DNA of 64,000 bases, taken from sequence record SRR2962707_660; one strand, written 5' to 3'. The notes under the pieces were generated by a model. That model was not told where the DNA came from and did no database searches. It was given only the letters and a program-made list of their open reading frames with translations. Shown one piece after another: positions 1,314 through 43,696 of this stretch. How positions within the stretch are numbered: position 1 is the first letter of the stretch; every line of letters begins with the position of its first letter. Made by a program: the position numbers and the translations under genes.

Positions 1314-2612
1314 TCAACGCTGACGGAGTTTCGTCAGAAGATCCGGCGTCGGATAACCATCCGCCGGGAGTCCGGCGCTCTGCTGAAACGCGCGGATCGC
1401 CTTACGCGTATTATAGCCGATAATCCCGTCGACGCCGCCCGTATCGTAGCCCCGGTCGGTGAGAAGCTGCTGCAGGTCGTGGCGCTCCTCCCGCCCGAGC
1501 GGCCTGTCTTCGCGCGGCCAACTCCCCTCGATCTCGCCCCGGCCCTTGAACCGGTCGGCAAGCAGGTTCACCGCCAGCGAATAGGAGGTGGAGGCGTTGT
1601 AGGCGAGGACGGTGCGGAAATTGTTCATGACAAGGAAGGCAGGGCCACGATGCCCGGCGGGCAGGAAGATCGACGCTTTCTCACCCATCTCGCCTTGAGG
1701 GAAAGGCCGTCCGTCCATGCGGGCAACCCCGGCGTCCGACCACTCGCCGGCCGTTTTCGAAACCGACATGTCGGCGCTCGCATAGTCGAAGCCCTGCGGC
1801 ACCTTCACCTCGTAGCCCCATGTGCCGCCGGTCTTCCAGCCGGACTGGCCGAGATAGTGCGCGGCGGAGGCAAGCGCATCGCCACGCGAATTCCAGATGT
1901 CGCGCCGCCCATCGCCATCGAAATCGACGGCGTGAGCATTGTAGGTGGTGGGAATGAACTGCGTCTGGCCCATGGCGCCCGCCCAGGAGCCGGTCATGCC
2001 CTTGGGCGTGATGTCGCCGTTCTGGATGATCTGCAGCGCGGCGACGAGCTGGGTGCGGCCATATTCCGTCCGCCGTCCCTCGAAGCCGAGAGTGGCGAGC
2101 GAGCGGACGACGCTCATCGTGCCCTGGAACGACCCGAAGTTCGATTCGAGCCCCCAGATCGCAACAAGCACATGCCGGTCGACGCCGTAACGCGCCTCGA
2201 TCCCGTCGAGCAGCGTCTTGTTCTCGGCGAGAAGCGCCTTGCCCTTGGCAACACGCGTATCGGAAAGAGCGCCTTCCAGATATTCCCAGACGGGCTTTGT
2301 GAACTCCGGCTGGCTTTCATTTGCCTCGATCACGTCGCGGTCGATCCTGACGCCTGCCAGCGACCGGTCGAAGGTCTGACCGGTGATACCCGCCTTGAGC
2401 GCATCCGCCCGAAAGGCGGTGAGCCAGTCCGCGAAGGCAGCGTTCTCAGTGACGGGCGAAGGGAGCGGCAGTTGCGTGTCCGGCGATGCATCCGCCGCGC
2501 AGCCGGTAACGGCAAGCGCGAGGAAAACAAAGGCGGGCATGGTAAGGCCCCGGGCCCGAAAAGGGCGGGACGGACGGAAGACGGACATCGAATGCTCTCC
2601 GGGTGACATCAT
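1314..2612 (-). CDS. Lytic murein transglycosylase (MltB/SLT_2) with C-terminal peptidoglycan-binding domain, probable lipoprotein
   Basis: AIWGLESNFG, GSWAGAMGQTQFIPTTY, DFDGDGRRDIW, YNASTSY; C-terminal LQQLL...GYDTGGVDGIIGYNTRKAIRAFQ; lipobox-like VTGC. Start codon uncertain. Confidence 0.92.
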   Translation of the reverse strand: MMSPGEHSMSVFRPSRPFRARGLTMPAFVFLALAVTGCAADASPDTQLPLPSPVTENAAFADWLTAFRADALKAGITGQTFDRSLAGVRIDRDVIEANESQPEFTKPVWEYLEGALSDTRVAKGKALLAENKTLLDGIEARYGVDRHVLVAIWGLESNFGSFQGTMSVVRSLATLGFEGRRTEYGRTQLVAALQIIQNGDITPKGMTGSWAGAMGQTQFIPTTYNAHAVDFDGDGRRDIWNSRGDALASAAHYLGQSGWKTGGTWGYEVKVPQGFDYASADMSVSKTAGEWSDAGVARMDGRPFPQGEMGEKASIFLPAGHRGPAFLVMNNFRTVLAYNASTSYSLAVNLLADRFKGRGEIEGSWPREDRPLGREERHDLQQLLTDRGYDTGGVDGIIGYNTRKAIRAFQQSAGLPADGYPTPDLLTKLRQR

Positions 2613-2829
2613 GGGCGAGACGCTATCACGCCCGTTTTCAAAATCGCAGATGGCACGCCCGTCCTTTTCCAGTGTCGGTTAATGGTTGTTGCTGTTCCGA
2701 TCCTGACGGTGAATTGAGGCGAGATATCGGCGCGGCCCTGCCGGTACGCGAATTCGGGTGTCATTCCCGCCATGCTAACCCTAGACTCCGATACGATTCT
2801 CGAAGGGACGGCAGCGGCTGGAGACATCG

Positions 2830-4521
2830 ATGGAAAGGCAAGGGGAACCCGGCATGTTCCCGATGTCGACGGCCTGGCGCCCGGGCCCGCTTCTTCTCTG
2901 GACAGGGGCCGCACTGGCCCTCGCCGCCTCTTGGAGCGTGGCGCCGCTCGCGCATGGCTGGCAAGCGGCCGACGAGACCTTGTTCCGCCTGCTGAACGGC
3001 ACCATCGCTCAGGGAGAAGGCGTGGCGACGCTCTGGGCTATCGGTTGCGAGCCGAGGTTTTCCGCTTTCCTGACGCTGACGATCATGACGGTCTACCTCG
3101 TTCGCCTCGGCCATGAGCGGGGGCAGGGTTTCCGCCACGATCTGGCGCTTGGGCTTGCCGCGATCGCTGTCCCCGCAGCACTCTTCATCCTGGAGGCGCT
3201 CGCCTTAGACATCGCCCGCCCCTCACCCGCAGACGCACTCTCGCCCCACAACGCCATACCGGCGCTCCTGCCATGGTCGGATGCGGGCGCAAACCGGCTT
3301 TCCCCCTTCCCCGCGGGTCACGCGGTACTGACAGGCTCGCTGAGCGTTCTCCTCTGGTTGGGGTTCGGCTGGCGGCTCGGCCTAGCCGGGCTCGCGCTCG
3401 CCGCGTTGCTTGCCTTGCCGCGGATTGCCGTGGGCGCCGAATGGACGGCGGACACGATTGCGGGCGGCGGGGTAGCGGCGTTCGCGACGCTGGCGCTCGC
3501 AACGGGGACGCCGCTCGTCTTCCTTCTCTATCGCGCGGCGCGCATGCCCGTCGACGGGCTGCTCGCGTGGTGGGAAAGCATCACCGGGCGGCTGAGCGTC
3601 GAGGGCCGCGAAAACTATCACCCGGCGAAACAGACCCTCCGCGGCATGTGCATCGGCGCGGCCGACCTCGTGCCCGGTGTCAGCGGCGGCACCATGGCGC
3701 TCATCCTCGGCGTCTACAAACGCCTGATCGCGGCCATCGCGCATTTCGACCGGGAATTCCTCGGCCAGTTGAAACGCTTCGAGTTCGTTGCGGCCGCACG
3801 CCACGTCGATCTCCTCTTCATCCTGCCTATCGGGATCGGTGCGCTGCTCTCGCTCATCATTTTCAGCCGGATCGTCCCGCTCTCGTTCCTTGTGACTGCC
3901 TTTCCTGAAATGACCTTCGGGTTTTTCTTCGGGCTGATCGCGGCCTCCATCTTTGGCCTTCTTGCCCATGTCGAAATTGCAGGCGCGAAGGGCGTCGGAT
4001 GGATCGCGCTTGGCGTCTGCTTCGGCCTGTTCGCCGCGATCCTCGTTCCCGTCGAAACGCCGGACGCAGCCTGGTTCATTTTTCTCTGCGGCATGGCGGC
4101 TATCGCCGCGATGCTGGTGCCGGGGATTTCCGGCTCCTTCGTGCTCCTCATTCTCGGCAAATATACCGATGCCATCGACGCGCTGGGCCGCCTCGACATG
4201 TCGTTTCTGCTGCCGCTCGCAGGCGGCGTCGTAACCGGCGCGCTGATCTTTTCACGCGCCATTTCATGGCTGCTCGACCGCTTCTATCGCCGGACCATGC
4301 TGACCGTGATCGGCATTCTGTGTGGATCGCTGCTTGCCGTCTGGCCGTTCAAGGACCGGCAGTATGAAACCATCCATGGCAAGACGCAGATGGTCTCCGC
4401 CGATCCCTTCATCCCCGTGAACCTCAACGGGACGGTCATCGCGGGCCTGATAGCGATCCTCGCCGGTGTCGCGCTCTACCGCGTTCTCGACAGGCTGGCC
4501 CAGCATTCGGATGAAAGCTGA
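2830..4521 (+). CDS. Fusion of an LpxT/PAP2-like domain and a DUF368 (undecaprenyl-phosphate translocase) domain
   Basis: N-half has RPSP, SPFPAGHA and LPRIAVGAEWTAD. C-half has GMCIGAADLVPGVSGGTMALILGVY and AMLVPGISGSFVLLILGKY (the two DUF368 PGxSG motifs). Single open frame. Confidence 0.85.
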   Translation: MERQGEPGMFPMSTAWRPGPLLLWTGAALALAASWSVAPLAHGWQAADETLFRLLNGTIAQGEGVATLWAIGCEPRFSAFLTLTIMTVYLVRLGHERGQGFRHDLALGLAAIAVPAALFILEALALDIARPSPADALSPHNAIPALLPWSDAGANRLSPFPAGHAVLTGSLSVLLWLGFGWRLGLAGLALAALLALPRIAVGAEWTADTIAGGGVAAFATLALATGTPLVFLLYRAARMPVDGLLAWWESITGRLSVEGRENYHPAKQTLRGMCIGAADLVPGVSGGTMALILGVYKRLIAAIAHFDREFLGQLKRFEFVAAARHVDLLFILPIGIGALLSLIIFSRIVPLSFLVTAFPEMTFGFFFGLIAASIFGLLAHVEIAGAKGVGWIALGVCFGLFAAILVPVETPDAAWFIFLCGMAAIAAMLVPGISGSFVLLILGKYTDAIDALGRLDMSFLLPLAGGVVTGALIFSRAISWLLDRFYRRTMLTVIGILCGSLLAVWPFKDRQYETIHGKTQMVSADPFIPVNLNGTVIAGLIAILAGVALYRVLDRLAQHSDES

Positions 4522-4606
4522 CACAAGCAACGGGGCGCCACGCCCCGGGAAGACGCCAAAAACGACCGGGTAACCCAGCTTGGTAAAACCGCCGTAGCAG
4601 CTTCGC

Positions 4607-4621
4607 TTAATGAAGGTTTAA
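4607..4621. promoter_or_regulatory. CtrA-type box TTAA-N7-TTAA
   Basis: TTAA TGAAGGT TTAA about 25 bp upstream of the MHYT kinase ATG, in GC-rich DNA. Confidence 0.7.
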
Positions 4622-4645
4622 GCGAGGGCATGCTTAATTCTGCCC

Positions 4646-6226
4646 ATGCTGACGGTCTATAACTGCATCACCGTCGACCACGATCTGCGCCTCGTCATTC
4701 TCGCCGGGTTCATTTGCGTGTTCGCAACCTTCTCGGCGGCCCATCTTCTCGTGCGCTCCACGGAAGAGGGCGAACAGCGGCGTGCGATCTGGATTCTGGG
4801 CGCAGGAATAGTCGCCGGCTGCGGCCTCTGGGCCACCCATTTCATTTCCATGCTCGCCTTCCGGGGGGAAGACCCCGTGAGCTACGACCCGGGCGTGACG
4901 TTCCTCTCCTTCGTCATCGCCATCGTCTTTTCGAGCGTCGGCTTCTCAGTCGCCACGCGGTTTCGTCCGGCGGGGATTGGCGGCGCGATTGTCGGCCTTG
5001 CCATCGGCGCCATGCACTACGTCGGCATGTCAGCTGTCAGCGCCCATGGCTACATCACATGGGACCGTGGTTTCGTTGCGGCCTCCATCGTGATCGGCAC
5101 GCTCTTCGCGGCGGCTGCGGCCGAGGCTGCTTTCTCGCTCAAGGGCCGATGGCGCATTCATGCCTGCTGGATACTGGCAACGATTGCGATTTGCGGTCTG
5201 CACTTCACCGGCATGGCGGCGATGAGCATTACCGGCGACCCGAGCGTCGAAATTTCGAGCGACGCCGTCGATTCCCTCCCCCTCGCCATCGCCGTTGCCG
5301 CCGTGACGCTCCTGATCGTGGTCCTCGCCTATGCCGGTATTGCTGTCGACCGCCATCTTGCTGATCGCGCGGTTCAGGAAGCGAGGCGGCTGCGCGCGCA
5401 TGTCGTTGAACTTGAGCAAACGAAGAAGCAGCTTGAGGCGACATCGGCCGACCTGCTGGTCGCGCTCAAGACCGCCTCCGCCGCCGATCACGCAAAGTCG
5501 CAATTCCTGGCCACCATGAGCCACGAGCTTCGCACACCGCTGAACGCCATTCTCGGCTTCTCCGAAATCATGACGACCGAAACTTTCGGCCCGCTCGGCA
5601 GCGCACGGTATCGCGACTACGCACAAGACATCTTCCGGAGCGGCAAGCACCTCCTGGCTCTCATCAACGACGTACTGGACTTCACGCGGGCCGATGCGGG
5701 CGAGCTTCATATCCATGAGGAAGAAGTCGACGTATCCGACGCCGTGGCCGACGCCGTGGCCGACGCCGTCAGGATGATCGAGACGCAGGCCGCGACGCAA
5801 AAGATCGAAATCCAGACAAACTTCTCTCCATCGCTGCCCCATATTCGTGCCGACCATCGCCGCGTAAGGCAGGTGCTGCTGAACCTCCTCTCGAACGCAG
5901 TCAAATTCACGCCCGAAGGCGGCAATGTCCGGATGGAGGCTGTTGTCGAGAATGGCAGGCTTGTCCTGCGCGTCGCCGACACGGGCATCGGCATTGCGCA
6001 GAAGGACATTCCGCTGGCGCTTGAGCGCTTCGGGCAGATTGACTCCGACCTGTCTCGGAAATACGAGGGCACGGGCCTCGGCCTGCCGCTCTCGAAATGC
6101 CTGATGGAGCACCATGGCGGGACGCTCGAGATCGAAAGTGAGCTCGGACAGGGCACGACGGTCATTCTGACCTTTCCCGCCGAGCGGAGCGTCGCTTTGC
6201 CGGACGCGGCCCGCGCGACCGCCTGA
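4646..6226 (+). CDS. MHYT-domain sensor histidine kinase (PleC/DivJ-like HisKA)
   Basis: MHYT repeats (WATHFISMLA, AMHYVGMSA, LHFTGMAA); H-box FLATMSHELRTPLNAILGFSE; N, G1 and G2 boxes (LNLLSNAVKFT, DTGIGI, GTGLGL). Confidence 0.92.
   Translation: MLTVYNCITVDHDLRLVILAGFICVFATFSAAHLLVRSTEEGEQRRAIWILGAGIVAGCGLWATHFISMLAFRGEDPVSYDPGVTFLSFVIAIVFSSVGFSVATRFRPAGIGGAIVGLAIGAMHYVGMSAVSAHGYITWDRGFVAASIVIGTLFAAAAAEAAFSLKGRWRIHACWILATIAICGLHFTGMAAMSITGDPSVEISSDAVDSLPLAIAVAAVTLLIVVLAYAGIAVDRHLADRAVQEARRLRAHVVELEQTKKQLEATSADLLVALKTASAADHAKSQFLATMSHELRTPLNAILGFSEIMTTETFGPLGSARYRDYAQDIFRSGKHLLALINDVLDFTRADAGELHIHEEEVDVSDAVADAVADAVRMIETQAATQKIEIQTNFSPSLPHIRADHRRVRQVLLNLLSNAVKFTPEGGNVRMEAVVENGRLVLRVADTGIGIAQKDIPLALERFGQIDSDLSRKYEGTGLGLPLSKCLMEHHGGTLEIESELGQGTTVILTFPAERSVALPDAARATA
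5736..5769 (+). repeat. In-frame 12-bp tandem repeat (CCGACGCCGTGG x2.8; DAVADAVADAV)
   Basis: Read directly inside the kinase CDS. Confidence 0.85.
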
Positions 6227-6348: not shown

Positions 6349-8524
<2,176 letters not shown>

Positions 8525-8528
<4 letters not shown>

Positions 8529-9214
8529 TCATCGCGATAATCCCCGCTCGCGGTGGCTCCAAACGCATCCCCCGCAAGAACCTCAAAGTCTTTCTCGGCC
8601 ATCCGATCATCGCCTACGCAATCCGCGCTGCGCGCGACACGGGCATCTTCGACCGCATCATCGTCTCCACCGACGACGAGGAGATCGCCGCAGTTTCCCG
8701 AGCGGAAGGGGCAGACGTTCCATTCATGCGCCCGCCAGAGCTTTCAGGCGACCACACGGCAACCGTCGACGTTGTGCGCCACGCCGCAGACTGGGCGGCT
8801 GCGAATATCGGCCCGGTCGATTTTGTCTGCTGCATCTACCCGACCGCCGTCTTCGTGGACGGAGAAACGTTGAAGCGCGGCTTCGACGAAATGCGCGCCG
8901 CAGGCACGGACTACGCGGTGAGCGTCGTCCGCTACTCCGCTCCCATCGAACGTGCGATGCGCATCACGGACAAAGGCCGCCTTGCCGCCGTGAACATCGA
9001 AGGCATGGCGATGCGCTCGCAGGACATCGAAGAGGTCTGTCACGATGCCGGGCAGTTTTACTGGGGAAGCCCCGCCGCCTTTGCCGCGACGCAAGCGGAG
9101 AGGATCGCACGCGCCGTGCCGGTCATTCTGCCGCGCACCCGCGTGCAGGACATCGACACGGAAGAAGACTGGCTGAACGCCGAACTTCTCTATCGCACTT
9201 TCTTCGGTGGCTAG
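8525..9214 (+). CDS. pseF: Pseudaminic acid cytidylyltransferase
   Basis: IIPARGGSKRIPRKN, CCIYPTA, HDAGQFYWG, VQDIDTEEDW. Confidence 0.92.
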
Positions 9215-10407
9215 ACGTCGGGCGCCACGTCGAAGCGCACCGCCTCGCGGATCGCGAGCGCCATTTCTTCAGCATCAGAGACTGTCTTTCCCCTCGTCAC
9301 GATCTTGCCGATCCGGTCCGTTCCCTTGCGCAACTGGCTCACGCGCGCGCCGGGCTCGACCGTGACCTCGAATTCAAGCACATCGTCACGCGCAAGCATG
9401 TCGTGCGGCAGATGGGCAGCCGAGAGAACGCCGTCCGCCGGCGCTTCCAGAATGAAGGCGGCGCAGGGCTGACGCAGGGCGGACACGAGAGACGTTTCGC
9501 GCCCGAACCCCGCGTGCACCGCAGCCGAAACCCAATCGACCCCGGTATAGCAGGTGACGAGTTCCGGCAGGCAGGTCGCACCGAGCCGCGCACCGACCTC
9601 GATGATCGCAGGAGTGCCGTCCGCGCGCAGGATGAGATCGATATTGGACGGCCCCCAGAGAATGCCGAGAGCATCGACGCACGCGGCGATTGCCGCCTCC
9701 ACCTTCGCAAGACCCTCCGGCGGAAGCGCCGATGGAAAGGAGTGACCGACGGGAATCATGAACGGCGGCGACGACATGAAATCATTGTGGACCTGAACGG
9801 AGACGCATTTGCCGCTAAGCGAAAAGGCCTGCGCGCCTGTTTCATATCCATCGATGAATTCCTCGACCAGAACGAGCCCGACACGCGAATACTGCATCGC
9901 TTCCGCATAGGCAGCGGGAACACTTTCTTCGGCCGTCACCTTGACGACGCCGCGGCTACCCGAGCTGTCGGGCGCCTTGACCACACAGGGAAACCCGATG
10001 CGGCGGGCTTCCTCCAGCGCTTCGTTTTCACGCGACGCCACCGCAAAACGCGGCTGCGGCACGCCCGCTGCCGCCAACGCTTTCCGCGTTTCGATCTTGT
10101 TGCTGCAGCGATCCGCGACCGCGCGCCCATTCCCCTTGAGCCGGAGCGCATCAACAACTGCGCCAACCGTCGGCACGCCAATATCGCTCTGAAGCGTCAT
10201 GGCGGCCCCGACCTTGTGCCGCCGGGCGACTGCGACCACGGCCTCGATATCGACGATGTCGACAGCTTCCGCGATATCGGCAAGCGCCATACCCGGCGCG
10301 TTCGCGTCCCGGTCCACGACGATGCTGCGAATGCCGAGCCCGCGCGCCGCTTCGATGGCCGGAACCTGGCCGAAGCCCGCGCCACAAATGAGGATCGTGT
10401 CAGTCAT
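9211..10407 (-). CDS. ATP-grasp domain ligase (L-amino-acid ligase / carboxylate-amine ligase-like)
   Basis: NKIETRKAL, VVKAPDSSGSRGV, VLVEEFIDG, IIEVGARLG; start overlaps the stop of the upstream acyltransferase. Confidence 0.85.
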   Translation of the reverse strand: MTDTILICGAGFGQVPAIEAARGLGIRSIVVDRDANAPGMALADIAEAVDIVDIEAVVAVARRHKVGAAMTLQSDIGVPTVGAVVDALRLKGNGRAVADRCSNKIETRKALAAAGVPQPRFAVASRENEALEEARRIGFPCVVKAPDSSGSRGVVKVTAEESVPAAYAEAMQYSRVGLVLVEEFIDGYETGAQAFSLSGKCVSVQVHNDFMSSPPFMIPVGHSFPSALPPEGLAKVEAAIAACVDALGILWGPSNIDLILRADGTPAIIEVGARLGATCLPELVTCYTGVDWVSAAVHAGFGRETSLVSALRQPCAAFILEAPADGVLSAAHLPHDMLARDDVLEFEVTVEPGARVSQLRKGTDRIGKIVTRGKTVSDAEEMALAIREAVRFDVAPDV

Positions 10408-10948
10408 CCGCAGGCAACACCGTTCCATCGCCGGCAAGGCGCCCGATTACCTTCGCGGGCACGCCGCCGAGCACAACGCGGTCGCCATAGCTCTTCGTGA
10501 CGACGGCTCCCGCCGCAACGAGACTCCCGGCACCCAACGTCACACCCGCCATGATGCAAGCATGTGCGCCGATCCATGTACCGCGCCCGATGCGGACATC
10601 CAGAAGCTCCGAGCCGCCGAAGCGGAACGACTGCTCCTTTTCCAGATGATTGGCTGCGGTGATCGAGACGTGATTGCCTATCAGCACTTCGTCCTCAAGC
10701 ATTATCGGTCCGTTGCCGAGATAGGTGCAGAAGCCGACATACACATGATCTCCCGCGCGGAGTTTTTCCGGGCTGTAGATGAAGGACTGTTCGGCCACCT
10801 TGAAGTTTTCGCCGCAGGAAAGGAGATGCGGACGGTAAAGCGCGCCGCGCCGTGCGTCGCCCGGCGGGCCGGAGGGAACGATCAGTCCCCTGAGCTTTAT
10901 CGATAAGCGTTGGGTGCTGGTGAGCGGCTTTCTCTCCGGGGAAGTCAT
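10400..10948 (-). CDS. Hexapeptide-repeat (left-handed beta-helix) acyltransferase
   Basis: IGRGTWIGAHACIMAGVTLGAGSLVAAGAVVTK...GGVPAKVI. Confidence 0.88.
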   Translation of the reverse strand: MTSPERKPLTSTQRLSIKLRGLIVPSGPPGDARRGALYRPHLLSCGENFKVAEQSFIYSPEKLRAGDHVYVGFCTYLGNGPIMLEDEVLIGNHVSITAANHLEKEQSFRFGGSELLDVRIGRGTWIGAHACIMAGVTLGAGSLVAAGAVVTKSYGDRVVLGGVPAKVIGRLAGDGTVLPADD

Positions 10949-11979
10949 GACGCCTCCCGCCAGCCAAGCATCCGCGTTGCCACGCGCGCCGCCCCGCGCC
11001 CATCCACCAACTGCATTCCGTTTTCAGCCATGGCCTCCCGCTCCTCTTGCCCCCGCCACAATCCGGCGATGCGCGCCGCAAGCATCGCCTCGTCGAGCTT
11101 CGCGACCTCGCCTGCGAAGGAGCATAACCCATCGTTGGCGAGCGCCGTCACCGCGAGCGACTGGTTCGGCGCGATGGAAACGACAAGCATGGGCAAGCCG
11201 ACGCAAAGCCCTTCAAAAACCGTGACGCCACCGCCGCAGATCGCGAGGCCTGCTGCGGCCATCAACATAGCGATGTCGGGCGGCGAGACATGAAGGCGGA
11301 CGGACGTCATGCCCGACGCAAGCGATTCGAGTACGGCGCGATGCCGGTTCGCGGCACCGATCACCACATCTGCCTCGATGCCGGGGTCGGCTCTGGCAAG
11401 CGCGCGCAGAACGAGCTCCGTCGCGTTAAGCGCATCCGCCCCGCCGAAGCTCACGAAGATGCGCTGCCTCTCCGCGGGGCGCCGCTCGCGCACCGCCCGG
11501 AACTCGGGCCGCAGCAGAGCAAAACGCGGACCGAGCAGCAGATCGGCGGCGGGCGGCACGAGCGGCCGCCACATCGCCTCGTGATTCGGAAAATAGTTCT
11601 GGTCGTGCAGGAGGTCGCAATGGTGGCGCCGGTCAGCCGGGCCGCCGATCACGCAGATGCGGCGCGCGGCCGGCGCGACCGCGTCTTCCCATGCGGCGTC
11701 GATGCCGTAGTGGTCGGCGACGAGCCAGTCCGCCCCGCCGTTCTCCTCCGCGGTCTTGCGCGTGGCGGCGGCATCGGCGGCCAAATCGGCGATCCCGGAA
11801 AGAAATCGGGCTTCATGCCCCCGCGCCGCGATGACATCTCCGATCTGGCCTTCAAGCTCCCGGCAGACGAAAAGGCAAGACGCGCCTCTTTCGCGAAGCT
11901 CATCCGCCAGCGTCAGGCAGCGCATCACATGGCCGATGCCGATTTCGGCCGATGCATCCACACGGAAGACGATTTTCAT
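10945..11979 (-). CDS. pseG: UDP-2,4-diacetamido-2,4,6-trideoxy-beta-L-altropyranose hydrolase
   Basis: FRVDASAEIGIGHVMRCLTLA, DHYGID, LLGPRFALLRPEF, SFGGADA, IAPNQ; no fused GNAT domain. Confidence 0.9.
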   Translation of the reverse strand: MKIVFRVDASAEIGIGHVMRCLTLADELRERGASCLFVCRELEGQIGDVIAARGHEARFLSGIADLAADAAATRKTAEENGGADWLVADHYGIDAAWEDAVAPAARRICVIGGPADRRHHCDLLHDQNYFPNHEAMWRPLVPPAADLLLGPRFALLRPEFRAVRERRPAERQRIFVSFGGADALNATELVLRALARADPGIEADVVIGAANRHRAVLESLASGMTSVRLHVSPPDIAMLMAAAGLAICGGGVTVFEGLCVGLPMLVVSIAPNQSLAVTALANDGLCSFAGEVAKLDEAMLAARIAGLWRGQEEREAMAENGMQLVDGRGAARVATRMLGWREAS

Positions 11980-12072
11980 GGGCCTGCTCGGAGTCTGTAA
12001 ACGATTCTGTGGCAGTATAATGGTTAACGGGTCAACACGGCATGAACAGCCGGGAACTGCAAAGCTTCAAGC

Positions 12073-13116
12073 ATGAAAATCGCAGACCTCCGGATAGGCG
12101 CAGGCGAAGCGCCATTCATCATTGCGGAAATGTCGGGCAACCATAACCAGTCGCTCGAACGGGCGCTGGCCATCGTGGATGCGGCGGCGGAAGCCGGCGC
12201 ACATGCGCTGAAGCTCCAGACCTACACCGCCGACATGATGACGCTCGACCTCGAAATCGGCGAATTCTTCATCGACGACCCGAAAAGCCTCTGGAAGGGC
12301 CAATCGGCGCACACCCTCTACCAGAAGGCCTATACGCCTTGGGAATGGCACGAAACCATATTCGACCACGCAAAACAGCTCGGGATGGTCGCCTTCTCCT
12401 CGCCCTTCGACGAAAGCGCCGTCGACTTTCTCGAAGAGCTCGGTGTGCCCTGCTACAAGATTGCGTCCTACGAGAACACCGACCTGCCGCTAATCCGCAA
12501 GGCGGCGGCGACGGGCAAGCCGCTCATCATCTCGACCGGCATGGCGAGCGTCGCGGAACTGGGCGAAGCCGTGCAGACGGCGCGCGAGGCGGGCTGCGAA
12601 GATCTCGTGCTGCTGAAATGCACCAGCACCTATCCGGCGACACCGGAGAACACCAACATCCTGACGATCCCGCATATGCGCGACCTGTTCGGCTGCGAAG
12701 TCGGCCTTTCCGATCACACAATGGGGATCGGCGTTTCCGTGGCGGCGGTCGCGCTCGGCGCAACCGTGATCGAAAAGCATTTCACGCTGGCGCGTGCCGA
12801 TGGTGGCGTCGATTCCGCCTTCTCGCTTGAACCCGCCGAGCTTGCCGCCCTCGTTACCGAGACAGGCCGCGCAGGGCAGGCGCTGGGACATGTGCGTTAT
12901 GGGCCGACGGAGGCTGAAAGCCGCTCCGTGACGCGCCGCCGCTCGCTCTATATCGGCAAGGACATGAAGGCGGGCGACGTGCTGACGGAAGAAAATCTCC
13001 GTCGCGTTCGCCCCGGGCTCGGCCTGCCGCCGAAATTCTACGACAAGCTGCTCGGCCGCCGCGTAAACCGCGACCTCACCAAGGGAACGCCCGTGAGCTG
13101 GGACATCGTTGGATGA
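12073..13116 (+). CDS. pseI: Pseudaminic acid synthase (NeuB family)
   Basis: IAEMSGNHNQSLERA, KLQTYTAD, AYTPWEWH, LLKCTSTYPA, GLSDHT, IEKHFTL; C-terminal SAF domain. Confidence 0.95.
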   Translation: MKIADLRIGAGEAPFIIAEMSGNHNQSLERALAIVDAAAEAGAHALKLQTYTADMMTLDLEIGEFFIDDPKSLWKGQSAHTLYQKAYTPWEWHETIFDHAKQLGMVAFSSPFDESAVDFLEELGVPCYKIASYENTDLPLIRKAAATGKPLIISTGMASVAELGEAVQTAREAGCEDLVLLKCTSTYPATPENTNILTIPHMRDLFGCEVGLSDHTMGIGVSVAAVALGATVIEKHFTLARADGGVDSAFSLEPAELAALVTETGRAGQALGHVRYGPTEAESRSVTRRRSLYIGKDMKAGDVLTEENLRRVRPGLGLPPKFYDKLLGRRVNRDLTKGTPVSWDIVG

Positions 13117-14033
13117 GCGATATCGAAGATTATTTCCGCCTGCGCCGCGAAATGACGGCACTGGCAACGGCGGCCTTCGACGCAGGGGAGAATGTCGTCA
13201 ACACGCTCGTCGCGCGCTTTCCTGATGCAAAGCAGGAGGCGATCGAAATCGCCTATGAGCTGCAGGCCGGGTCCTACACGGCGAACCGCGACAAGCCCGC
13301 GGCTCTCGCCTATCGCGGCGAGCAGCACACCATCCTGTCGAACGACGTTCTGCCGCTCGCAGCGCGCCGCGACGGCGCTTCGCTTCTCGACGCGGGAACA
13401 GGCGAAGGCACAGGCTGGTACGGCTTCGATTTCGCGGCCTCGTCCATCGGCGAACTCCACGCCGTCGATATCAGCCTTCGCCGTCTTTCCTTCGTGGAAC
13501 AAAACCTGACGAACCCTCCCGCCCGGCTGTCGACTGTGCGGGCGGATCTCCGCGACCTGCCCTATTTTCCGGGTTCGTTCGATATCGTCGTGACCATGCA
13601 TGCGGTGGAGCCGAACGGCGGCAGCGAGCACGATATTCTCGGCGACCTCGCGGCGCTTTCCTCCGACATGCTTTGCCTCTTCGAACCGGATTACCGGGCC
13701 GCCTCGCCGGAAGGGAAAGCACGTATGGAGAAGCTCGGCTATGCACTCGAAATCTTCGAGGCCGCGCGGGCATTGCCGGATTTCGATATCGCTTTCGAGC
13801 GCCCGCTTCCCTCCGCGACCAACCCGCTGAACCCCACCACCGTCATCTGCCTGAAGCGGAAAAACGCAAAGCAGGCAACGCTCAGGCGAAAATCGCCGCT
13901 CGCGGAACTCGAGCTTGCCGATCATGGCGACCATTTTGCAGAGACGGGTCCCGGCGCAAGCGCGATCTTCCCCGTCATCGGCGGTATCGGCTGCCTGCGC
14001 AAGAGCGATGCGGTCATGAGAATCGGCCGCTGA
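13113..14033 (+). CDS. Class I SAM-dependent methyltransferase
   Basis: LLDAGTGEGT, AVDISLRR, ADLRDLPY..SFDIVVT; ATGA overlap with pseI; Trm112-like tail (FPVIGGIGCL). Confidence 0.82.
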   Translation: MSDIEDYFRLRREMTALATAAFDAGENVVNTLVARFPDAKQEAIEIAYELQAGSYTANRDKPAALAYRGEQHTILSNDVLPLAARRDGASLLDAGTGEGTGWYGFDFAASSIGELHAVDISLRRLSFVEQNLTNPPARLSTVRADLRDLPYFPGSFDIVVTMHAVEPNGGSEHDILGDLAALSSDMLCLFEPDYRAASPEGKARMEKLGYALEIFEAARALPDFDIAFERPLPSATNPLNPTTVICLKRKNAKQATLRRKSPLAELELADHGDHFAETGPGASAIFPVIGGIGCLRKSDAVMRIGR

Positions 14034-14150: not shown

Positions 14151-15716
14151 GTGAGTACCGTGACCGCAATTGAAAATCACATTCCGGCCTTCAGCAAGGC
14201 GGCCCCCGTCGCCGCTCCCGCCGTCGAAGGCTTTGAGAACACCTACCGCGAGGAAACGGGCGCCGGTACGCGACTGACGCCGCTTGCCGACCGTTTCATG
14301 CTGCTGGTCGGCGATCTCGGCGCACTGGTGCTGGCGCAGGTGATTGCCGGCTCCATCGCTTTCGGCATCAATGTGCAGGTTCTCAATACGGAATTCGCGG
14401 CTCTGGAGGCCGGCGAGCTGACAAGCCGCCTCGTTCGCATAGGTTTCCTGCTGATGCTGCCCGTTCTGTGGTGGGCCGCAAAGGGCCACTATTCGAAGCG
14501 CACCCCGTTCTGGGCCGAGACCAAGGAAATCGTGAAGGGCATCGCGCTGGTCGCCCTTGTCGACGGCTTCCTTCAGTACCTGACCAAGGACTATTTCTCG
14601 CGGCTCTGGATGCTCCAGGCGTGGATCTGGGCGCTGGCGCTTGTCCCGGTGACACGTATCGCAATGAGACATGTCCTGAAGCGGTACGGCAGCTGGACCG
14701 CGCCGGTCCTCCTGATCGGCTCGAAAGAGAACACCGACGAAGCCGCTCAGGTGCTCGAGGACGAACCTTATCTCGGCTACGAAGTGGCGGGCGCCATCGA
14801 TCTCGCTGAGCTTACTTCCGAGCGCAACGCCTCCAACCCTGCGAGCCTTCTCTATCAGGCGGGCGGCCAGCTCTCCGCTGCCCTGAAGCTCGCCTGCACC
14901 CGTCACGGCGCACGCTTCGTGGTTCTTGCCCCTTCGCCGGAGGAAATGGCGAGCCTTGACCACATCCTGCGCGCGCTGCACCGCGCCCGCATCGCCTTTT
15001 CAATCGTGCCGCCGGTGAAGGGCATCGGCGTGATGGCGCTCGAGGCCGGCAACTTCTTCAGCCACGACCTCGTGATGCTGACGCTCGCCGACAATTTGAA
15101 CCGGCCGATGGCGCGCCTCATGAAGCGCAGCTTCGACCTTGCCGTCGCGAGCGCCGCGCTCGCCGTGCTGGCCCCCTTCTTCTGGGTCGTCTCCGGCCTT
15201 ATCCGTCTCGACGGCGGACCGGCTTTCTTCGCCCATCGCCGCGTCGGCGAGAAGGGCCGCGATTTCCATTGCCGCAAGTTCCGCACGATGCATGTCGACA
15301 GCGACGCGATCCTGAAGGACGTGCTCGAAAACAACCCGCAGGCCGCCGCCGAATGGGCCCGCGACCAGAAGCTCCGCAACGATCCGCGCGTGACGGCGGT
15401 GGGCGCCTTCCTGCGCAAGACGAGCCTCGACGAACTGCCGCAGCTCATCAACGTGATCCGCGGCGAGATGAGCCTTGTCGGCCCCCGCCCTGTCACCTAC
15501 GCGGAAGTCCTGCGCTATGGCGAGGACGCGGAATACTACCTCTCCGCAAAGCCCGGTATCACCGGTCTCTGGCAGGTGAGCGGCCGCAACGACACGACCT
15601 ATATGCGCCGCGTTGAGCTCGACGCCTGGTATGTGAAGAACTGGTCGCTCTGGCAGGATATCGCGATCATGTTCAAGACCTTCCCGGCCGTGCTGCTGCG
15701 CCGCGGCGCCTGCTGA
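14151..15716 (+). CDS. wbaP: Undecaprenyl-phosphate galactose phosphotransferase (WbaP-type priming GT)
   Basis: N-terminal TM helices, GHYSKRTPFW, KRSFDL, KFRTM, DPRVTAVGAFLRKTSLDELPQL, MSLVGPRP, KPGITGLWQVSGR. Sugar specificity is uncertain. Confidence 0.88.
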   Translation: MSTVTAIENHIPAFSKAAPVAAPAVEGFENTYREETGAGTRLTPLADRFMLLVGDLGALVLAQVIAGSIAFGINVQVLNTEFAALEAGELTSRLVRIGFLLMLPVLWWAAKGHYSKRTPFWAETKEIVKGIALVALVDGFLQYLTKDYFSRLWMLQAWIWALALVPVTRIAMRHVLKRYGSWTAPVLLIGSKENTDEAAQVLEDEPYLGYEVAGAIDLAELTSERNASNPASLLYQAGGQLSAALKLACTRHGARFVVLAPSPEEMASLDHILRALHRARIAFSIVPPVKGIGVMALEAGNFFSHDLVMLTLADNLNRPMARLMKRSFDLAVASAALAVLAPFFWVVSGLIRLDGGPAFFAHRRVGEKGRDFHCRKFRTMHVDSDAILKDVLENNPQAAAEWARDQKLRNDPRVTAVGAFLRKTSLDELPQLINVIRGEMSLVGPRPVTYAEVLRYGEDAEYYLSAKPGITGLWQVSGRNDTTYMRRVELDAWYVKNWSLWQDIAIMFKTFPAVLLRRGAC

Positions 15717-16188: not shown

Positions 16189-17061
16189 ATGTCCGCCCCT
16201 CGCACTGAAACGCCGAGCCAGAGTACCAGCGAAATCCCATTCGCTGCCCGCAATCGCCAGTTTCATGCCGGCGAAAGCAAACACTGGTACGCCGGCGATC
16301 CGGCGGTCTCCGCTTATTACAACGCATTGTCAGCGCTGTTTCCGGCGGGCGAAACGTTCTTTTGCGAAACGATACGCGCCCAGAAAAGCAAGGTCACAGA
16401 CCCGAAGCTCAAGACCGAGATGAAGGAATTCCTTGGCCAAGAGTCGATCCATGCGCGCGAACATCACATCTACAACAAGCGCATCGCCTTGCAGGGCTAT
16501 CCAATGGAAGCGCTTGAACGGCGCTCGGAAAGGATGCAGGCAGTCGGCCGCTTGCTGCCGAAAAAGCTGCAACTGGGCCTTACAGTGGCGCTTGAGCACT
16601 ACACCACCATTATCTCAGACTGCCTGCTCAACGTCCGCGGCCATTTCGCCGAGCATGTCTCGCCCCCTGACTATGAATTCTGGATCTGGCACTCGATCGA
16701 GGAAACCGAGCACAAGTCGGTCGCCTTCGATGTGCTGAAGGCCATCACCTCACCGCCGGCATTTTACGCGATCCGCGTCTTCTCGCTGTTTGCGACGACG
16801 TTGAGCTTCAATGCGATTTTGCTCCTCCATATCCGCACGCTTTTGAAAACGGACGGATTGCAATGGAGCCCGATGGCATGGGGACGCATTCTCCACTACA
16901 TGTGGGTTTTTCCCGGCGCCTGGCGCGTTTGTTTCCCCGCCTGGATGGCCTGGCTGAAGCCCGGCTTCCATCCGTGGCAGAACGACAACCGCGAGCTCGT
17001 GGCGACCTGGAAGGCCGAGCAAGGCGAAAAGCCGTTCGCGACCATAATCGACGCCGCGTGA
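16189..17061 (+). CDS. 'Metal-dependent hydrolase' (PF10118-type, ferritin-like diiron motifs), copy 1
   Basis: FPAGETFF, GQESIHAREH, LEHYT, WHSIEETEHKSVAFDV, PGFHPW; RBS GGAGG. Confidence 0.88.
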   Translation: MSAPRTETPSQSTSEIPFAARNRQFHAGESKHWYAGDPAVSAYYNALSALFPAGETFFCETIRAQKSKVTDPKLKTEMKEFLGQESIHAREHHIYNKRIALQGYPMEALERRSERMQAVGRLLPKKLQLGLTVALEHYTTIISDCLLNVRGHFAEHVSPPDYEFWIWHSIEETEHKSVAFDVLKAITSPPAFYAIRVFSLFATTLSFNAILLLHIRTLLKTDGLQWSPMAWGRILHYMWVFPGAWRVCFPAWMAWLKPGFHPWQNDNRELVATWKAEQGEKPFATIIDAA

Positions 17062-17263: not shown

Positions 17264-18145
17264 ATGTCCACCGCCGAGCCCGACCAGGCCGCCCGCGGCC
17301 AGAGCGGAAGCGAACTGGCCTTCGCCACACGCAACCGCCAGTTTCAGGCTGGCGAGCGCCGCCACTGGTACAATGGCGACCCTGTCGTCACGGCCTATTT
17401 CAACGCGCTTTCGGCGATGTTCCCCGTCGGCGAGCGTTTCTTCTGCGACACTGTGCGCTACCAGAAACACAAGATCACCGATCCGAAGCTGCAAGGCGAG
17501 ATCCGGGAGTTTCTCGGACAGGAAGCAATCCATTCCCGCGAACACCAGGCCTATAACAATCGCATCGCCGCGCAGGGCTATCCGATGTGGAAGCTGGAGC
17601 GCCGTTCCGCCCGCATGCAGAACCTCGGTCGATTGCTAATGCCGAAGAAAGCACAGCTCGGCCAGACGGTCGCGCTGGAGCATTTCACGGCAGTGCTCGC
17701 CGATCATTTGCTTCGGGAGCGCGAGACCTTCGCAAGCCACGCCTCGCCAGAAGAATACGAACTCTGGATGTGGCACGCGGTGGAGGAGACGGAGCACAAG
17801 GCCGTCGCCTTCGATGTGCTGAAGGCCGTCACGAAGCCCACGACCTTCTATTTCCTGCGTGTGCGCTCGCTGCTTATGGCGACGTTCTTCTTCAACCTCA
17901 ACCTGTTCCTGCACATCCGCAATTTGCTGACGGTCGAGCGGATGCAATGGAGCCCACGCGCCTGGGGCCGGCTCTTCCGCTATCTCTGGATCAACCCTGG
18001 CCCCTTGCGGAAATCGATTCCCGCCTATCTGGACTGGTTCAAACCGAGCTTCCATCCCTGGCAGCACGACAACCGCGAACTCGTGGCCGAATGGAAGGTG
18101 GAGCATGGCGAGGAGCCGGCTCACGCCGCTACGGCGGCAGCCTGA
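17264..18145 (+). CDS. 'Metal-dependent hydrolase' (PF10118-type), copy 2
   Basis: FPVGERFF, GQEAIHSREH, LEHFT, WHAVEETEHKAVAFDV, PSFHPW; colinear paralog of copy 1. Confidence 0.88.
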   Translation: MSTAEPDQAARGQSGSELAFATRNRQFQAGERRHWYNGDPVVTAYFNALSAMFPVGERFFCDTVRYQKHKITDPKLQGEIREFLGQEAIHSREHQAYNNRIAAQGYPMWKLERRSARMQNLGRLLMPKKAQLGQTVALEHFTAVLADHLLRERETFASHASPEEYELWMWHAVEETEHKAVAFDVLKAVTKPTTFYFLRVRSLLMATFFFNLNLFLHIRNLLTVERMQWSPRAWGRLFRYLWINPGPLRKSIPAYLDWFKPSFHPWQHDNRELVAEWKVEHGEEPAHAATAAA

Positions 18146-18265: not shown

Positions 18266-18859
18266 TCAGAAAATCAGCGCACCGATGCAAACGAGGCTGA
18301 GCGACAGCATCGCACCGGACATCACCGGGACCACGCGCTTGAAGCGCCGCTTCGTCCAGGGCCGGACGGACGATTCCCGAGCCGCCTGAACGATGGCCCC
18401 TCCATGCGGAGACTTTTCCTCCGCTTCATCGCTCTCCGCGATCACGCGCACCTGCGCGTCGATGACCGCCCCGCGATGCGTGACGAGCTTCGTGCACTTT
18501 ACTTCTCCCGCGATCCGGCTCGACGAACGCAGGATTATCTCTCCCGCGCATTCGAGCGTCCCGTCGAACACACCGGCGATTTCGGCGCGAAGGACCGAAG
18601 CCTGCCCCTCGACGCGGCCTGTTGCGCCGATCGACAGTTGAAACGCTCGCAGATCGGCGTTTACGGCAGCGCCGTCGACAAAAATCGAACCCTGTGTTTC
18701 GAAAGAGCCCTCGAAAAGACTGTTCTCACCGATCGTGATGTCTTCATTACCGGCCCGGAGAATGCGGACCGGTGCCTCGGTCCTGCGGACCTGACTGTCC
18801 TTGGCAGACGCGTCCATGCCGACGTTTGCCGTATTCATGTTCCCCAGCGACATTTTCAT
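18266..18859 (-). CDS. Bactofilin (polymer-forming cytoskeletal protein) with C-terminal hydrophobic helix
   Basis: ITIGENSLFEGSF...IFVDG...LSIGATGRVEG...AEIAGVFDGTL...SSRIAGEV...GAVIDAQ. Confidence 0.8.
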   Translation of the reverse strand: MKMSLGNMNTANVGMDASAKDSQVRRTEAPVRILRAGNEDITIGENSLFEGSFETQGSIFVDGAAVNADLRAFQLSIGATGRVEGQASVLRAEIAGVFDGTLECAGEIILRSSSRIAGEVKCTKLVTHRGAVIDAQVRVIAESDEAEEKSPHGGAIVQAARESSVRPWTKRRFKRVVPVMSGAMLSLSLVCIGALIF

Positions 18860-19037
18860 CTCCCATCCGCTTGGATTCACAGAAGCGTCCGTAAACCCGA
18901 AGGTCCGACAGAACGCTTGTACGAGCGGATAGACTGCTCTCCCGATGGATTAAAAACTCTTTCCCAAAAGGAGGGATGCATCCGGGATGGAGAGAATATG
19001 GCTAACGACGACACCAATTCGGCAGAGAACGGACAAA

Positions 19038-23984: not shown

Positions 23985-25520
23985 TCAATAGGCGTTGCGC
24001 CCGATGAACCCATAAAATGGCGTCATCGCCAGGACCTTCAGGTCGAACCATACAGACCAGTGTTCGATGTAATAGAGGTCGTGTTCGACGCGGCGGCGCA
24101 TCTTTTCCGGCGCGCCGGTTTCACCGCGATAGCCGTTGACCTGCGCCCAGCCGGTCATGCCTGGCTTGACTTTGTGGCGGTTCGCATATCGGCCCAGAAC
24201 GCTTGAATAGTATTCGTTGTGCGAAAGAGCATGAGGGCGCGGGCCAACAAGGGACATGTCGCCCTTCAGCACATTAAAGAGCTGAGGCAGTTCGTCGAGG
24301 CTCGTCTTGCGAAGGAACCGTCCTACACGGGTGATGCGCGGATCGTGGCGCATCGCCTGCACGACGGTTTTTTCATCCTCTCCCGTCACATACATCGTGC
24401 GGAACTTGTAGACGTTGAACACTTCGTGATTGAAGCCATGCCGCCTCTGTTTGAAGATCACGCTTCCCTTGCTGTCGAACTTGATGGCAGCGGCAACAGC
24501 AAGAAAAAGCGGCGCAAAACCGACAAGTAAAAGAGCGGCAAGCACACGGTCTTCAATGTTCTTGATGATCGGCGCCCAGTCGTCCATCGGACGCCTTTCG
24601 AGCTCCAGCACCGTCAACCCTTGATAGTTGAGCAGCCCCTTGGGCGGAATACGGAAGCTCGTCGAGCTCGGACATATCCTGATATCGGACGGGAGCAGCG
24701 AAAGCTGTTCCACAAGATTTGCAATTCGCAGCTCGTCGGCAAGCGGCATGGCGATCAGAATTTCATCGACGCGATGCCTCTGTCCGAAAACGATCAAGTC
24801 GGAAAGACCGCCGCGTACCGGAACATGCGGATTTTCTCCGTCGCGAAGGTCGTCGAACACACCGACCACGCGGAGATTCATGGAGGACAGACCCACTTTC
24901 CGTATCAGGTTCTCGGCTATTTCACCGCTGCCATATATGGCGACGTGCCTGGCGAACCAGCCGAGCGCCCCCCACCACTGCAGAATACGGGCACCCGCGA
25001 GATGCAGCGTCATGACGCCTGAAACGGAAAACGCAAACCATAGCGCGAACCAGCCGCGCGAATAGTCTTCCGATATCTTCAGGAGATACCCGGCAGCCAT
25101 CAGCACAAGAGCTGTGGCCAGAAACCCGAACAGTATGCGCCTCGTTTGGCCGCGAACGTGGCTCAGTACATGGAACTCATAGAGCTGCCGGTATCTGAAA
25201 ATCGTAACGCTGAGAATGGCGCCAACACCGGCGACCACGGCGTAGGGCACTGACCCCGCGGCGGTGCCGAGATGAAGATTGATATACGTCCACTTGGCGA
25301 GCAACGCCGCGCCCATGATGATTGCTCCGTCGGCGCACATCATCAAATCGGCAATAACACGCTTGGAAACAAGCGCTTGCTCAGCGCCCCCCTCCCTGGC
25401 GCCCGAGGGAGCGCCTTCTTCACGCAAAGTTTTTGAAGGATCGGGGGACAAACCGCCCTGCGCCTGTCCGGAGGACGCGAAGACGATATTCTCGTCCGGT
25501 CTTTCTCCCAACCTGCGCAT
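23985..25520 (-). CDS. wcaJ: Undecaprenyl-phosphate glucose phosphotransferase (WcaJ/HfsE-type priming GT)
   Basis: YSRGWF, VVGVFDD, FKQRRHG...KFRTM, DPRITRVGRFLRKTSLDELPQ, VGPRPHA, RHKVKPGMTGWAQVNGYRGET. Confidence 0.88.
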   Translation of the reverse strand: MRRLGERPDENIVFASSGQAQGGLSPDPSKTLREEGAPSGAREGGAEQALVSKRVIADLMMCADGAIIMGAALLAKWTYINLHLGTAAGSVPYAVVAGVGAILSVTIFRYRQLYEFHVLSHVRGQTRRILFGFLATALVLMAAGYLLKISEDYSRGWFALWFAFSVSGVMTLHLAGARILQWWGALGWFARHVAIYGSGEIAENLIRKVGLSSMNLRVVGVFDDLRDGENPHVPVRGGLSDLIVFGQRHRVDEILIAMPLADELRIANLVEQLSLLPSDIRICPSSTSFRIPPKGLLNYQGLTVLELERRPMDDWAPIIKNIEDRVLAALLLVGFAPLFLAVAAAIKFDSKGSVIFKQRRHGFNHEVFNVYKFRTMYVTGEDEKTVVQAMRHDPRITRVGRFLRKTSLDELPQLFNVLKGDMSLVGPRPHALSHNEYYSSVLGRYANRHKVKPGMTGWAQVNGYRGETGAPEKMRRRVEHDLYYIEHWSVWFDLKVLAMTPFYGFIGRNAY

Positions 25521-34462: not shown

Positions 34463-34470
34463 GCACTCAA

Positions 34471-35343: not shown

Positions 35344-35406
35344 GAACAGCTCAAGAAGTCGAGTCCGCCCGGGCGGATGTCCTCAATGCAACAAGCCGCA
35401 AAAACG

Positions 35407-37288: not shown

Positions 37289-37328
37289 AACGTTGGACTT
37301 TCATCTTCGGGCAATTAGGTCCCCGCGA

Positions 37329-41814: not shown

Positions 41815-41864
41815 CTACGCTTGGTCGTAGCCGCAGTCCCGTCGATACAATTTCCAGATTAGAC

Positions 41865-43694: not shown

Positions 43695-43696
43695 CG

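Follow-up and report, generated by a model that had tools for sequence, protein, structure and literature searches.

Introduction

Recycling of undecaprenyl phosphate (Und-P) limits the synthesis of all envelope glycans, and the flippases that serve it were identified only in 2022. The closest described proteins to the subject of this study are the Und-P translocases PopT of Staphylococcus aureus and VCA0040 of Vibrio cholerae, both of the DUF368 family, and Escherichia coli LpxT (YeiU), an undecaprenyl pyrophosphate (Und-PP):lipid A 1-phosphotransferase of the PAP2 fold. Here we analyze a gene at positions 2830..4521 of a 64,000-nucleotide (nt) stretch of DNA from sequence record SRR2962707_660 (the window), whose product joins an LpxT-like PAP2 module to a DUF368/PopT module and carries glutamate (Glu204) at the position of the PAP2 nucleophilic histidine. 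We hold with moderate confidence that the protein is a flippase carrying a catalytically dead LpxT module, kept as a folded appendage under weaker but real purifying selection.

Loss of catalytic residues from a PAP2 fold has a precedent in animals, where relatives encoded by plasticity-related genes (LPPR) keep the fold and have lost residues of the catalytic motifs. Unlike the window protein, these are eukaryotic, are not fused to a transporter and have an unrelated function. Und-P translocation is given as the function of the DUF368 family in PMC9876793, 10.1101/2022.02.03.479048 and PMC12826051. Fusions of another flippase family to a PAP2 enzyme, cited as analogous in the preliminary description of the window, are indeed in print: Roney and Rudner (10.1101/2022.02.03.479048) report DedA-PAP2 (UptA-phosphatase) fusions and gene neighbors, in which a flippase and a PAP2 Und-PP phosphatase, acting at consecutive recycling steps, are brought together by the same logic as in the window fusion. 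The PAP2-DUF368 architecture is also already listed, in the main text and Supplementary Table 3 of Sit et al. 2022 (Nature 613:721), with four entries: Parvibaculum sp. (565 aa), Rhodobiaceae bacterium (565 aa), an alphaproteobacterium (575 aa) and a Xanthomonadales bacterium (562 aa). These share their architecture with the window fusion and include its genus; the text and table list architecture only, and LpxT type and catalytic residues are not addressed there. Members of the glutamate-bearing clade described below differ from the listed proteins in falling under the Pfam PAP2 cut-off and in being named DUF368-only by their sources.

Results and Discussion

The fusion is encoded on the plus strand by one open reading frame (ORF) of 563 aa, open throughout, with a Shine-Dalgarno-like GGAGA (2820..2824) 5 nt upstream of the ATG at 2830. 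Homologues align from residue 1, and the third-position GC content of the ORF (GC3 = 0.80) is similar to that of neighboring genes. Residues 1-262 (2830..3615) form an LpxT-type membrane PAP2 module that is predicted to be catalytically dead, and residues about 265-560 (3622..4509) a well conserved polyprenyl-phosphate translocase module of the DUF368/PopT family. Full-length homologues are of roughly 560 aa and 33-99% identical to the window protein; 94 fused homologues have 45 invariant columns, mostly within the DUF368 half. The earlier claim of a single ORF joining a PAP2-like domain to a complete DUF368 agrees with both Pfam and the LpxT comparison, by which the window protein is a true fusion. 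Nor is the gene split elsewhere, as the fusion is conserved in 9 of 9 Parvibaculum-type loci that include the N-terminal half (N-half; L001-L008 and L010) and in about 100 database proteins. Ten such loci (L001-L010) were compared in all, of which L009 is cut off within the DUF368 half and eight have an upstream flank.

The C-terminal half (C-half) matches Pfam PF04018 (DUF368, "undecaprenyl phosphate translocase-like") with an E-value of 4e-72 and 243.2 bits against a cut-off of 26, from residue 275 to 516 and over profile positions 1-240 of 246. Two NCBIfam models of polyprenyl-phosphate transporters, NF052564 and NF052563, are matched at 205.1 and 101.2 bits. The window protein shares its family with PopT and VCA0040 but differs from them in its sub-equivalog NCBIfam scores (205 and 101 versus 400 bits) and in its extra N-terminal PAP2 module; with scores below both 400-bit equivalog cut-offs, it is a DUF368 family member and not a VCA0040/PopT equivalog. 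DUF368 proteins of about 310-340 aa without the N-terminal module are common and 44-51% identical to the C-half. The C-terminal module is intact and, judged by its family and by what is published on how that family works, most likely returns Und-P from the periplasmic to the cytoplasmic leaflet.

The two Pfam domains first proposed for the protein thus differ in support, PF04018 being strong and PF01569 (PAP2) weak, with 24.2 bits (E 3.1e-5, residues 119-223) against a gathering score of 27.2; most His-bearing fused homologues have a precomputed PF01569 match. Comparison with E. coli K-12 proteins was more informative. In BLASTP, residues 1-267 were 27% identical to LpxT over 210 aa (E 4e-18), with E204 opposite LpxT H190, and the N-half scored 67.8 bits with LpxT versus 23.1 with PgpB and 21.2 with YbjG. 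A profile of 53 catalytically complete fused N-domains reached 206.5 bits with LpxT (positions 7-225 of 237), 34.1 with YbjG and 14.2 with PgpB, and a profile of 20 N-domains of the glutamate-bearing (Glu) clade gave 86.2, 1.1 and -3.9 bits, respectively. By both methods the module resembles LpxT, over its full length, more than it does YbjG or PgpB, so that the original label "LpxT-like" proves specific and not a generic PAP2 assignment. LpxT and the N-half have in common the motifs SW...W...D...F...N, R-x-S/A-P, FP-x-x-H and PR-x4-GA-x-W-x-x-D, and a predicted six-helix PAP2 fold. NCBIfam scans of 16 of the 94 aligned homologues gave weak YbjG-type matches (14 of 16) and SepP matches (3 of 16) and no LpxT-named match, the window N-half itself giving only a marginal SepP match; the YbjG-type or SepP label was overturned by the direct comparison with E. 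coli LpxT, YbjG and PgpB.

Structural comparison is consistent with this placement. An AlphaFold2 (AF2) model of the window protein built on the 94 homologues (predicted local distance difference test, pLDDT, 87.5; predicted template modeling score, pTM, 0.78) has the helical-bundle fold of membrane PAP2 proteins. Its Foldseek matches include LpxE (6ebu; probability 1.00, template modeling (TM) score to target 0.50, E 0.04) and Bacillus subtilis PgpB (5jki; probability 0.92, TM score to target 0.46, E 0.42), the E-values being weak because the query was the full two-domain model. A phmmer search of PDB sequences with the N-half alone returned no match at E up to 10, and the family profile aligned its FPgDH and PRlvaGAHWltD with YPSGH and SRVICGAHWQSD of PhoN, weakly (E 0.45). 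The alignments to LpxT H190 and to PhoN together place residue 204 at the position of the nucleophile in the third PAP2 motif (C3).

The motifs quoted in the preliminary description are all present in the window protein, and the codon at 3439..3441 reads GAA. The N-terminal motif (S34-W35...W44...D48...F52..L55-N56) is followed by a remnant of the first catalytic motif (C1), R130-P-S-P133 (3217..3228), in which the Arg is kept and the basic residue seven positions upstream is absent (A123); E. coli LpxT itself has Q in this column, which makes it a weak feature for the subfamily. The second motif (C2) region, G153...R156..P159-F-P-A-G163-H164 (F160-P-A-G-H164; 3286..3321), keeps its His, and the K, S, S and D of the LpxT family are replaced by G, R, P and G. 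The C3 motif, P197-R198-IAVGA-E204-W-TA-D208 (3418..3453), keeps its Arg and Asp and has Glu204, aligned to LpxT His190, in place of the nucleophilic His of the PAP2 C3 signature SRX5HX3D (PMC7413402). In PAP2 enzymes this His is the residue phosphorylated in the phospho-histidine intermediate, and its replacement in PgpB (H207A) abolishes activity both in vivo and in vitro (PMC7413402); LpxT H190A fails to restore lipid A 1-diphosphate (PMC2904496).

Loss of the His had been flagged from the outset and stands, yet it is not the sole change, as that account implied. Besides the non-basic A123, four other LpxT-conserved pocket-proximal residues are replaced. Relative to LpxT, the N-half has Glu for His190 and G, R, P, G and S for K139, S142, S145, D149 and D65. 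The columns compared are those in which 51-53 of the 53 complete fused rows agree with E. coli LpxT (51-52 for K139, S142, S145 and D149). Across the 20 aligned rows of the Glu clade, the column of K153 (LpxT K139) has G in every row, and S156, D163 and D78 are likewise replaced in all 20 (R, G and S in the window). Other columns are kept in part: S159 in 7 rows (P in the window), D208 in 10, H164 in 15, R130 in 16 and R198 in 19, the window itself having retained the last four. The N-half also differs from LpxT in being fused to a 300-aa flippase. It is probably without the LpxT activity, transfer of the distal phosphate of Und-PP to position 1 of lipid A.

A separate observation concerns column 163. 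LpxT- and YbjG-type proteins conserve Asp here (LpxT D149; YbjG FPSDH) where PgpB has Gly162, and PgpB G162D is inactive (PMC7413402), which suggests that the LpxT/YbjG-type pocket differs from that of PgpB even when intact.

Glu204 is a clade-wide character. A homologue search returned 120 proteins, of which the 100 sequences of at least 500 aa, query included, are fused. Residue 204 is His in 73 of these, Glu in 21, Asn in 2, and Arg, Gln, Ser or Leu in one each; the query is among the 21, as is a protein of other origin with 99% identity to it. For the alignment and tree we retained 94 rows, having removed a near-duplicate (P0002), four proteins with a shortened or gapped N-half (P0069, P0077, P0079 and P0080) and one with an unalignable N-half (P0074). 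The tree was built from DUF368 columns only, so that the domain carrying the trait does not shape it. The 20 Glu rows form one branch (Shimodaira-Hasegawa-like approximate likelihood ratio test, SH-aLRT, 98), which lies within two larger groups, of 33 (96) and 39 (97) rows, where the remaining rows have His. The four DNA sequences of the Glu clade (window, L001, L002 and L010) all have GAA, and the six His-bearing loci CAT or CAC, a difference that takes two base substitutions. The order ATP-grasp, SLT_2, fusion, MHYT kinase, PseB is found in Glu loci (L001, L002 and L010) and in His loci (L004-L007), which makes the two forms orthologues at one locus. By tree and gene order, then, the Glu clade is nested among His-bearing Parvibaculum orthologues, and alignment of these orthologues bears out the change from His to Glu as real and not private to the window. 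The pattern shows a single ancestral event in one Parvibaculum subclade, in which the C3 His became Glu; the same lineage lost four other pocket residues, and others drifted later. An error of sequencing or assembly, or a mutation private to the window genome, can be dismissed: the change takes two substitutions, GAA recurs in three independent genome records (L001, L002 and L010), and databases of several origins hold another 20 proteins with Glu, including the one 99% identical to the window protein.

Catalytic residues have decayed repeatedly in fused proteins. A complete set is, by alignment, still present in the N-module of most fused relatives, and 37 of the 94 fused rows lack at least one of the C2 His, C3 Arg, C3 His and C3 Asp. 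Outside the Glu clade, 17 further incomplete rows fall in about 15 separate places in the tree, and fused lineages there have Asn, Arg, Gln, Ser or Leu in place of the C3 His. Stand-alone proteins present a different picture. When 1.84 billion cluster representatives were searched exhaustively with the window N-half, 321 matched at E up to 0.001; the best 150 comprise 142 proteins of less than 320 aa, 7 of at least 500 aa and one of 405 aa. Among these 150, all 149 full-length rows keep His at column 204, and a single stand-alone row lacks the C2 His. The contrast with stand-alone forms is strong, and it would tie the decay of catalytic residues to fusion.

Rates of change point the same way. 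By the Nei-Gojobori method, the ratio of nonsynonymous divergence (dN) in the N-half to that in the C-half is 2.26-3.20 in the six pairs among the window, L001, L002 and L010, versus 0.93-1.37 in the six pairs among the complete-motif loci L005-L008. At the protein level, the median N/C ratio of p-distances stands at 2.17 among Glu-Glu pairs (n = 186) and at 1.34 among complete-complete pairs (n = 167). The largest loss of constraint lies in the periplasmic loop between C1 and C2, where mean pairwise identity is 0.45 in the Glu clade versus 0.70 in the complete set, although in the DUF368 half the Glu clade is the shallower of the two (identity 0.79 versus 0.69). With 74% identity to L001, 73% to L002 and 54% to L010, compared to 74-96% for flanking genes, the N-half is the fastest-evolving stretch of the neighborhood. 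The C-half is held by a ratio of nonsynonymous to synonymous divergence (omega) of 0.12-0.23. From these comparisons, constraint on the N-half is relaxed, chiefly near the catalytic loop, yet the module does not evolve neutrally.

The explanation we favor can be put as follows. The product is a two-module protein of the inner membrane. In the ancestral fusion, a complete PAP2 half would have taken the distal phosphate off periplasmic Und-PP and passed it to lipid A or to water, beside the flippase. In the Glu clade the module is most probably dead for the phospho-histidine mechanism and persists, folded, on the flippase, with the Glu carboxylate perhaps sitting in the R130/R198 anion pocket and stabilizing it. 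This last suggestion draws on PgpB H207A, in which phosphate bound in the pocket raises the melting temperature by 17 degrees C (PMC7413402). Und-PP would then be dephosphorylated in trans by BacA or another PAP2 protein. Of the two options raised in the preliminary description, a pseudo-enzyme is the one favored, and a Glu acyl-phosphate is disfavored by the co-losses, the later decay, the other replacements and the relaxed N-half, less decisively so for the five-member subclade of the window; the accompanying term "one-protein recycling unit" is no longer apt if the PAP2 half is dead, and fits the His-bearing relatives instead.

Redundancy for Und-PP dephosphorylation in Glu-clade organisms is plausible. 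In the supplement of Sit et al. 2022, P. lavamentivorans and Parvibaculum sp002480495 stand under BacA + DUF368 + DedA, and lpxT is non-essential in E. coli (PMC7356881). No stand-alone LpxT-like gene was found in the window and the flanks of L001-L010, every match there being the fused gene.

In keeping with such redundancy, stand-alone LpxT-like proteins of 244-271 aa with all catalytic motifs were observed elsewhere (P0122-P0131), one of them under the name Parvibaculum sp. and another on a contig of 3.38 Mb. Their identity to the N-half of a Parvibaculum fusion that carries His is 50-64%, and two clusters have an additional precomputed PF03706 match. LpxT-like domains are also fused to other envelope-modifying modules: P0149 (725 aa) has a sulfatase-family domain (PF00884) of the phosphoethanolamine transferase fold, and in P0181 (405 aa) the domain lies behind a GNAT acetyltransferase.

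Several points weigh against a dead appendage or lessen the force of the evidence for it. The sample of fused homologues is centered on the query, and the tree was made by a quick method with SH-aLRT support only and is unrooted, so that the polarity from His to Glu rests on nesting. Dead lineages of stand-alone proteins can go unseen when clusters are formed at 50% identity; one His-bearing representative stands for the entire Glu clade. With omega at 0.25-0.40 in the Glu clade (0.05-0.33 in complete pairs), the N-half is not free to drift, though most values of synonymous divergence (dS) exceed 1 and are saturated, leaving L001-L002 and L004-L006 as the reliable pairs. The former (dS 0.30) has an omega of 0.26 in the N-half and 0.12 in the C-half; the latter (dS 0.33), with 0.20 and 0.12, comes near the 0.26 of the Glu clade, and one of its partners lacks the C3 Arg. 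The five-member subclade of the window retains R130, H164, R198 and D208, and all 20 rows still have Glu although the N-half has diverged by about 48%; a Glu with a chemical role would also fit this. Finally, no second Und-PP phosphatase was found in the 64-kb window or the flanks of L001-L010.

Among the competing explanations, the one that survives best regards the N-half as a functionless relic, retained only through in-frame translation with a needed flippase, its helices staying hydrophobic and nonsense mutations and frameshifts being purged. Such a relic would account for catalytic decay that occurred many times in fused forms only (the 17 further rows in about 15 tree places, against one of 142 stand-alone proteins among the best 150 of 321 matches) and for the rank of the N-half as the fastest-evolving stretch of its neighborhood; moreover, the abundance of module-free DUF368 proteins implies that the flippase fold does not need the module. 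An omega of 0.25-0.4, however, is well under 1, and the 36 of 261 N-half columns that are invariant in the Glu clade include polar periplasmic residues and not only helix cores (W44, D48, N56, P133, P161, P197, G202, E204 and W205). No lineage represented in the 100 fused proteins has cleanly deleted the module, though four rows (504-525 aa) are shortened or gapped in the N-half. We consider a pure relic unlikely.

The pocket around Glu204 might instead have been re-tooled, either as a general-base Und-PP hydrolase coupled to its own flippase or, with the pocket inactive, as a receptor on the periplasmic face for Und-P, Und-PP or lipid A that hands the carrier to, or gates, the PopT module. 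We regard this as doubtful. If either is true, bacteria would have their first PAP2 pseudo-enzyme or neo-enzyme to which a definite part in recycling the carrier lipid can be assigned.

Still more improbable, in our judgment, is that the PAP2 half remains an enzyme with altered chemistry, with Glu204 as nucleophile (through an acyl-phosphate) or, more plausibly, as general base that activates water; a phosphotransferase dependent on a covalent phospho-His would then have become a plain Und-PP hydrolase that feeds the fused flippase. Some features of the clade are those expected of such an enzyme: E204 is fixed in 20 of 20 rows, against variation in 225 of the 261 N-half columns, C3 is the best conserved N-half segment in the clade (0.71), the window subclade keeps both phosphate-binding Args along with the C2 His and C3 Asp, and N-half omega is below 0.4. 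Loss of the C2 His in some rows is not decisive either, as PgpB H163A, altered in this residue, complements growth on C55-PP (PMC7413402). Against catalysis by Glu, K153, S156, D163 and D78 are gone from every row of the clade, though E. coli LpxT and the complete fused rows alike conserve them, and decay has gone on since, with D208 lost in 10 of 20 rows, H164 in 5, R130 in 4 and R198 in 1, and rows like that of the fused Glu protein P0012 lacking D208, R130 and H164 at once. The catalytic C1-C2 loop is the most relaxed segment, Asn, Arg, Gln, Ser or Leu occurs at the same site elsewhere, which makes Glu one outcome of several, and a literature search turned up no PAP2 protein with a carboxylate nucleophile. 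These losses favor a dead LpxT module carried on a flippase, as set out above.

The genes around the fusion were compared across the ten Parvibaculum-type loci. A lytic transglycosylase with SLT_2 and PG_binding_1 domains (1314..2612, minus strand) is divergent from the fusion, and ATP-grasp and SLT_2 genes lie upstream in 8 of 8 loci with an upstream flank. In four of the eight the transglycosylase is adjacent. In the other four (L003, L005, L006 and L007) a gap of about 3.6 kb, between about 6400 and 10000, separates it from the fusion; this gap is absent in the window, L001, L002, L004 and L010, and the only one annotated, in L005, holds genes for a GH42 beta-galactosidase and a GH4 glycoside hydrolase. 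The transglycosylase is thereby weakened as a candidate obligate partner. Directly downstream is a gene for an MHYT-domain histidine kinase (4646..6226, plus strand), present in 9 of 10 loci and followed by PseB-like and Bac_transf genes; no response regulator gene lies beside it. A sigma-70 scan of 2500-4800 found no promoter-like site, and nine terminator-like matches in the same interval all lie within or at the ends of coding sequence.

From 6355 to about 56 kb the window encodes surface-glycan functions: a nonulosonic-acid set, two Bac_transf proteins, rmlABCD, GDP-mannose genes, glycosyltransferases, two Wzy_C proteins, an ABC exporter, a Wzz/GNVR kinase and Poly_export. The divergent transglycosylase and the roughly 50 kb of glycan genes are thus as first described, but a functional link to the fusion is not supported, the synteny being within one genus. 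Association of the fusion with the glycan cluster may be no more than inherited synteny within Parvibaculum.

Other features of the region deserve record. The nonulosonic-acid (pseudaminic/legionaminic-type) set at 6355-14033 comprises PseB-like, DegT aminotransferase, cytidylyltransferase, ATP-grasp, hexapeptide transferase, NeuB and methyltransferase genes. L005 has this set at 67-89% identity to the window; in L001, L002, L004, L006 and L010, PseB is 87-93% identical and the NeuB match only 30-32%, which suggests that the cassette behind PseB has been swapped between species. Two large initiating phosphoglycosyl transferases of the Bac_transf + CoA_binding_3 type (14151-15716, plus strand, and 23985-25520, minus strand) suggest that two separate Und-P-primed polymers are encoded in the region. 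Tandem paralogues of a PF10118 "predicted metal-dependent hydrolase" (16189-17061 and 17264-18145, both plus strand) are followed by a bactofilin gene (18266-18880, minus strand). Inside the glycan cluster, an island at 34000-46000 has a GC content of 0.48-0.55, compared to 0.59-0.66 elsewhere, and encodes GT28-C, GT2 and GT1/GT4 glycosyltransferases, an FkbM methyltransferase, Wzy_C, two ORFs without a Pfam match, an ABC exporter and a polysialyltransferase-like protein (41865-42896, minus strand); it looks like a horizontally exchanged, serotype-specific block. Five ORFs with gene-like GC3 have no Pfam match at E up to 0.001 (10945-11979, 61005-61886 and 62541-63998, minus strand; 26181-26942 and 57992-58768, plus strand), that at 57992-58768 having an unusual first-position GC of 0.85.

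Conclusions

A literature search, thin on subscription journals, found no paper on an LpxT-type PAP2 partner of DUF368, on repeated decay once fused or on a clade-fixed Glu, and for a PAP2 pseudo-enzyme or an LpxT-PopT link it found nothing beyond the architecture listing. To that extent, new relative to print are the LpxT type of the PAP2 partner, its repeated decay after fusion and the clade-wide Glu at the nucleophile position. Proteins of this kind are labeled only DUF368 because the PAP2 half falls below the Pfam cut-off, a point of consequence for annotation. The practical impact of a finding in an environmental alphaproteobacterium is modest. For the biology of carrier-lipid recycling, an LpxT-type partner of DUF368 brings lipid A 1-phosphorylation together with Und-PP dephosphorylation and Und-P flipping in a single polypeptide. 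That partner has repeatedly lost catalytic residues when fused and not when standing alone, and in an entire Parvibaculum clade selection maintains Glu at the position of the nucleophile. The window protein is therefore a candidate bacterial membrane pseudo-enzyme, and its family provides a natural test of whether two steps of Und-P recycling, that of the phosphatase and that of the flippase, need physical coupling.

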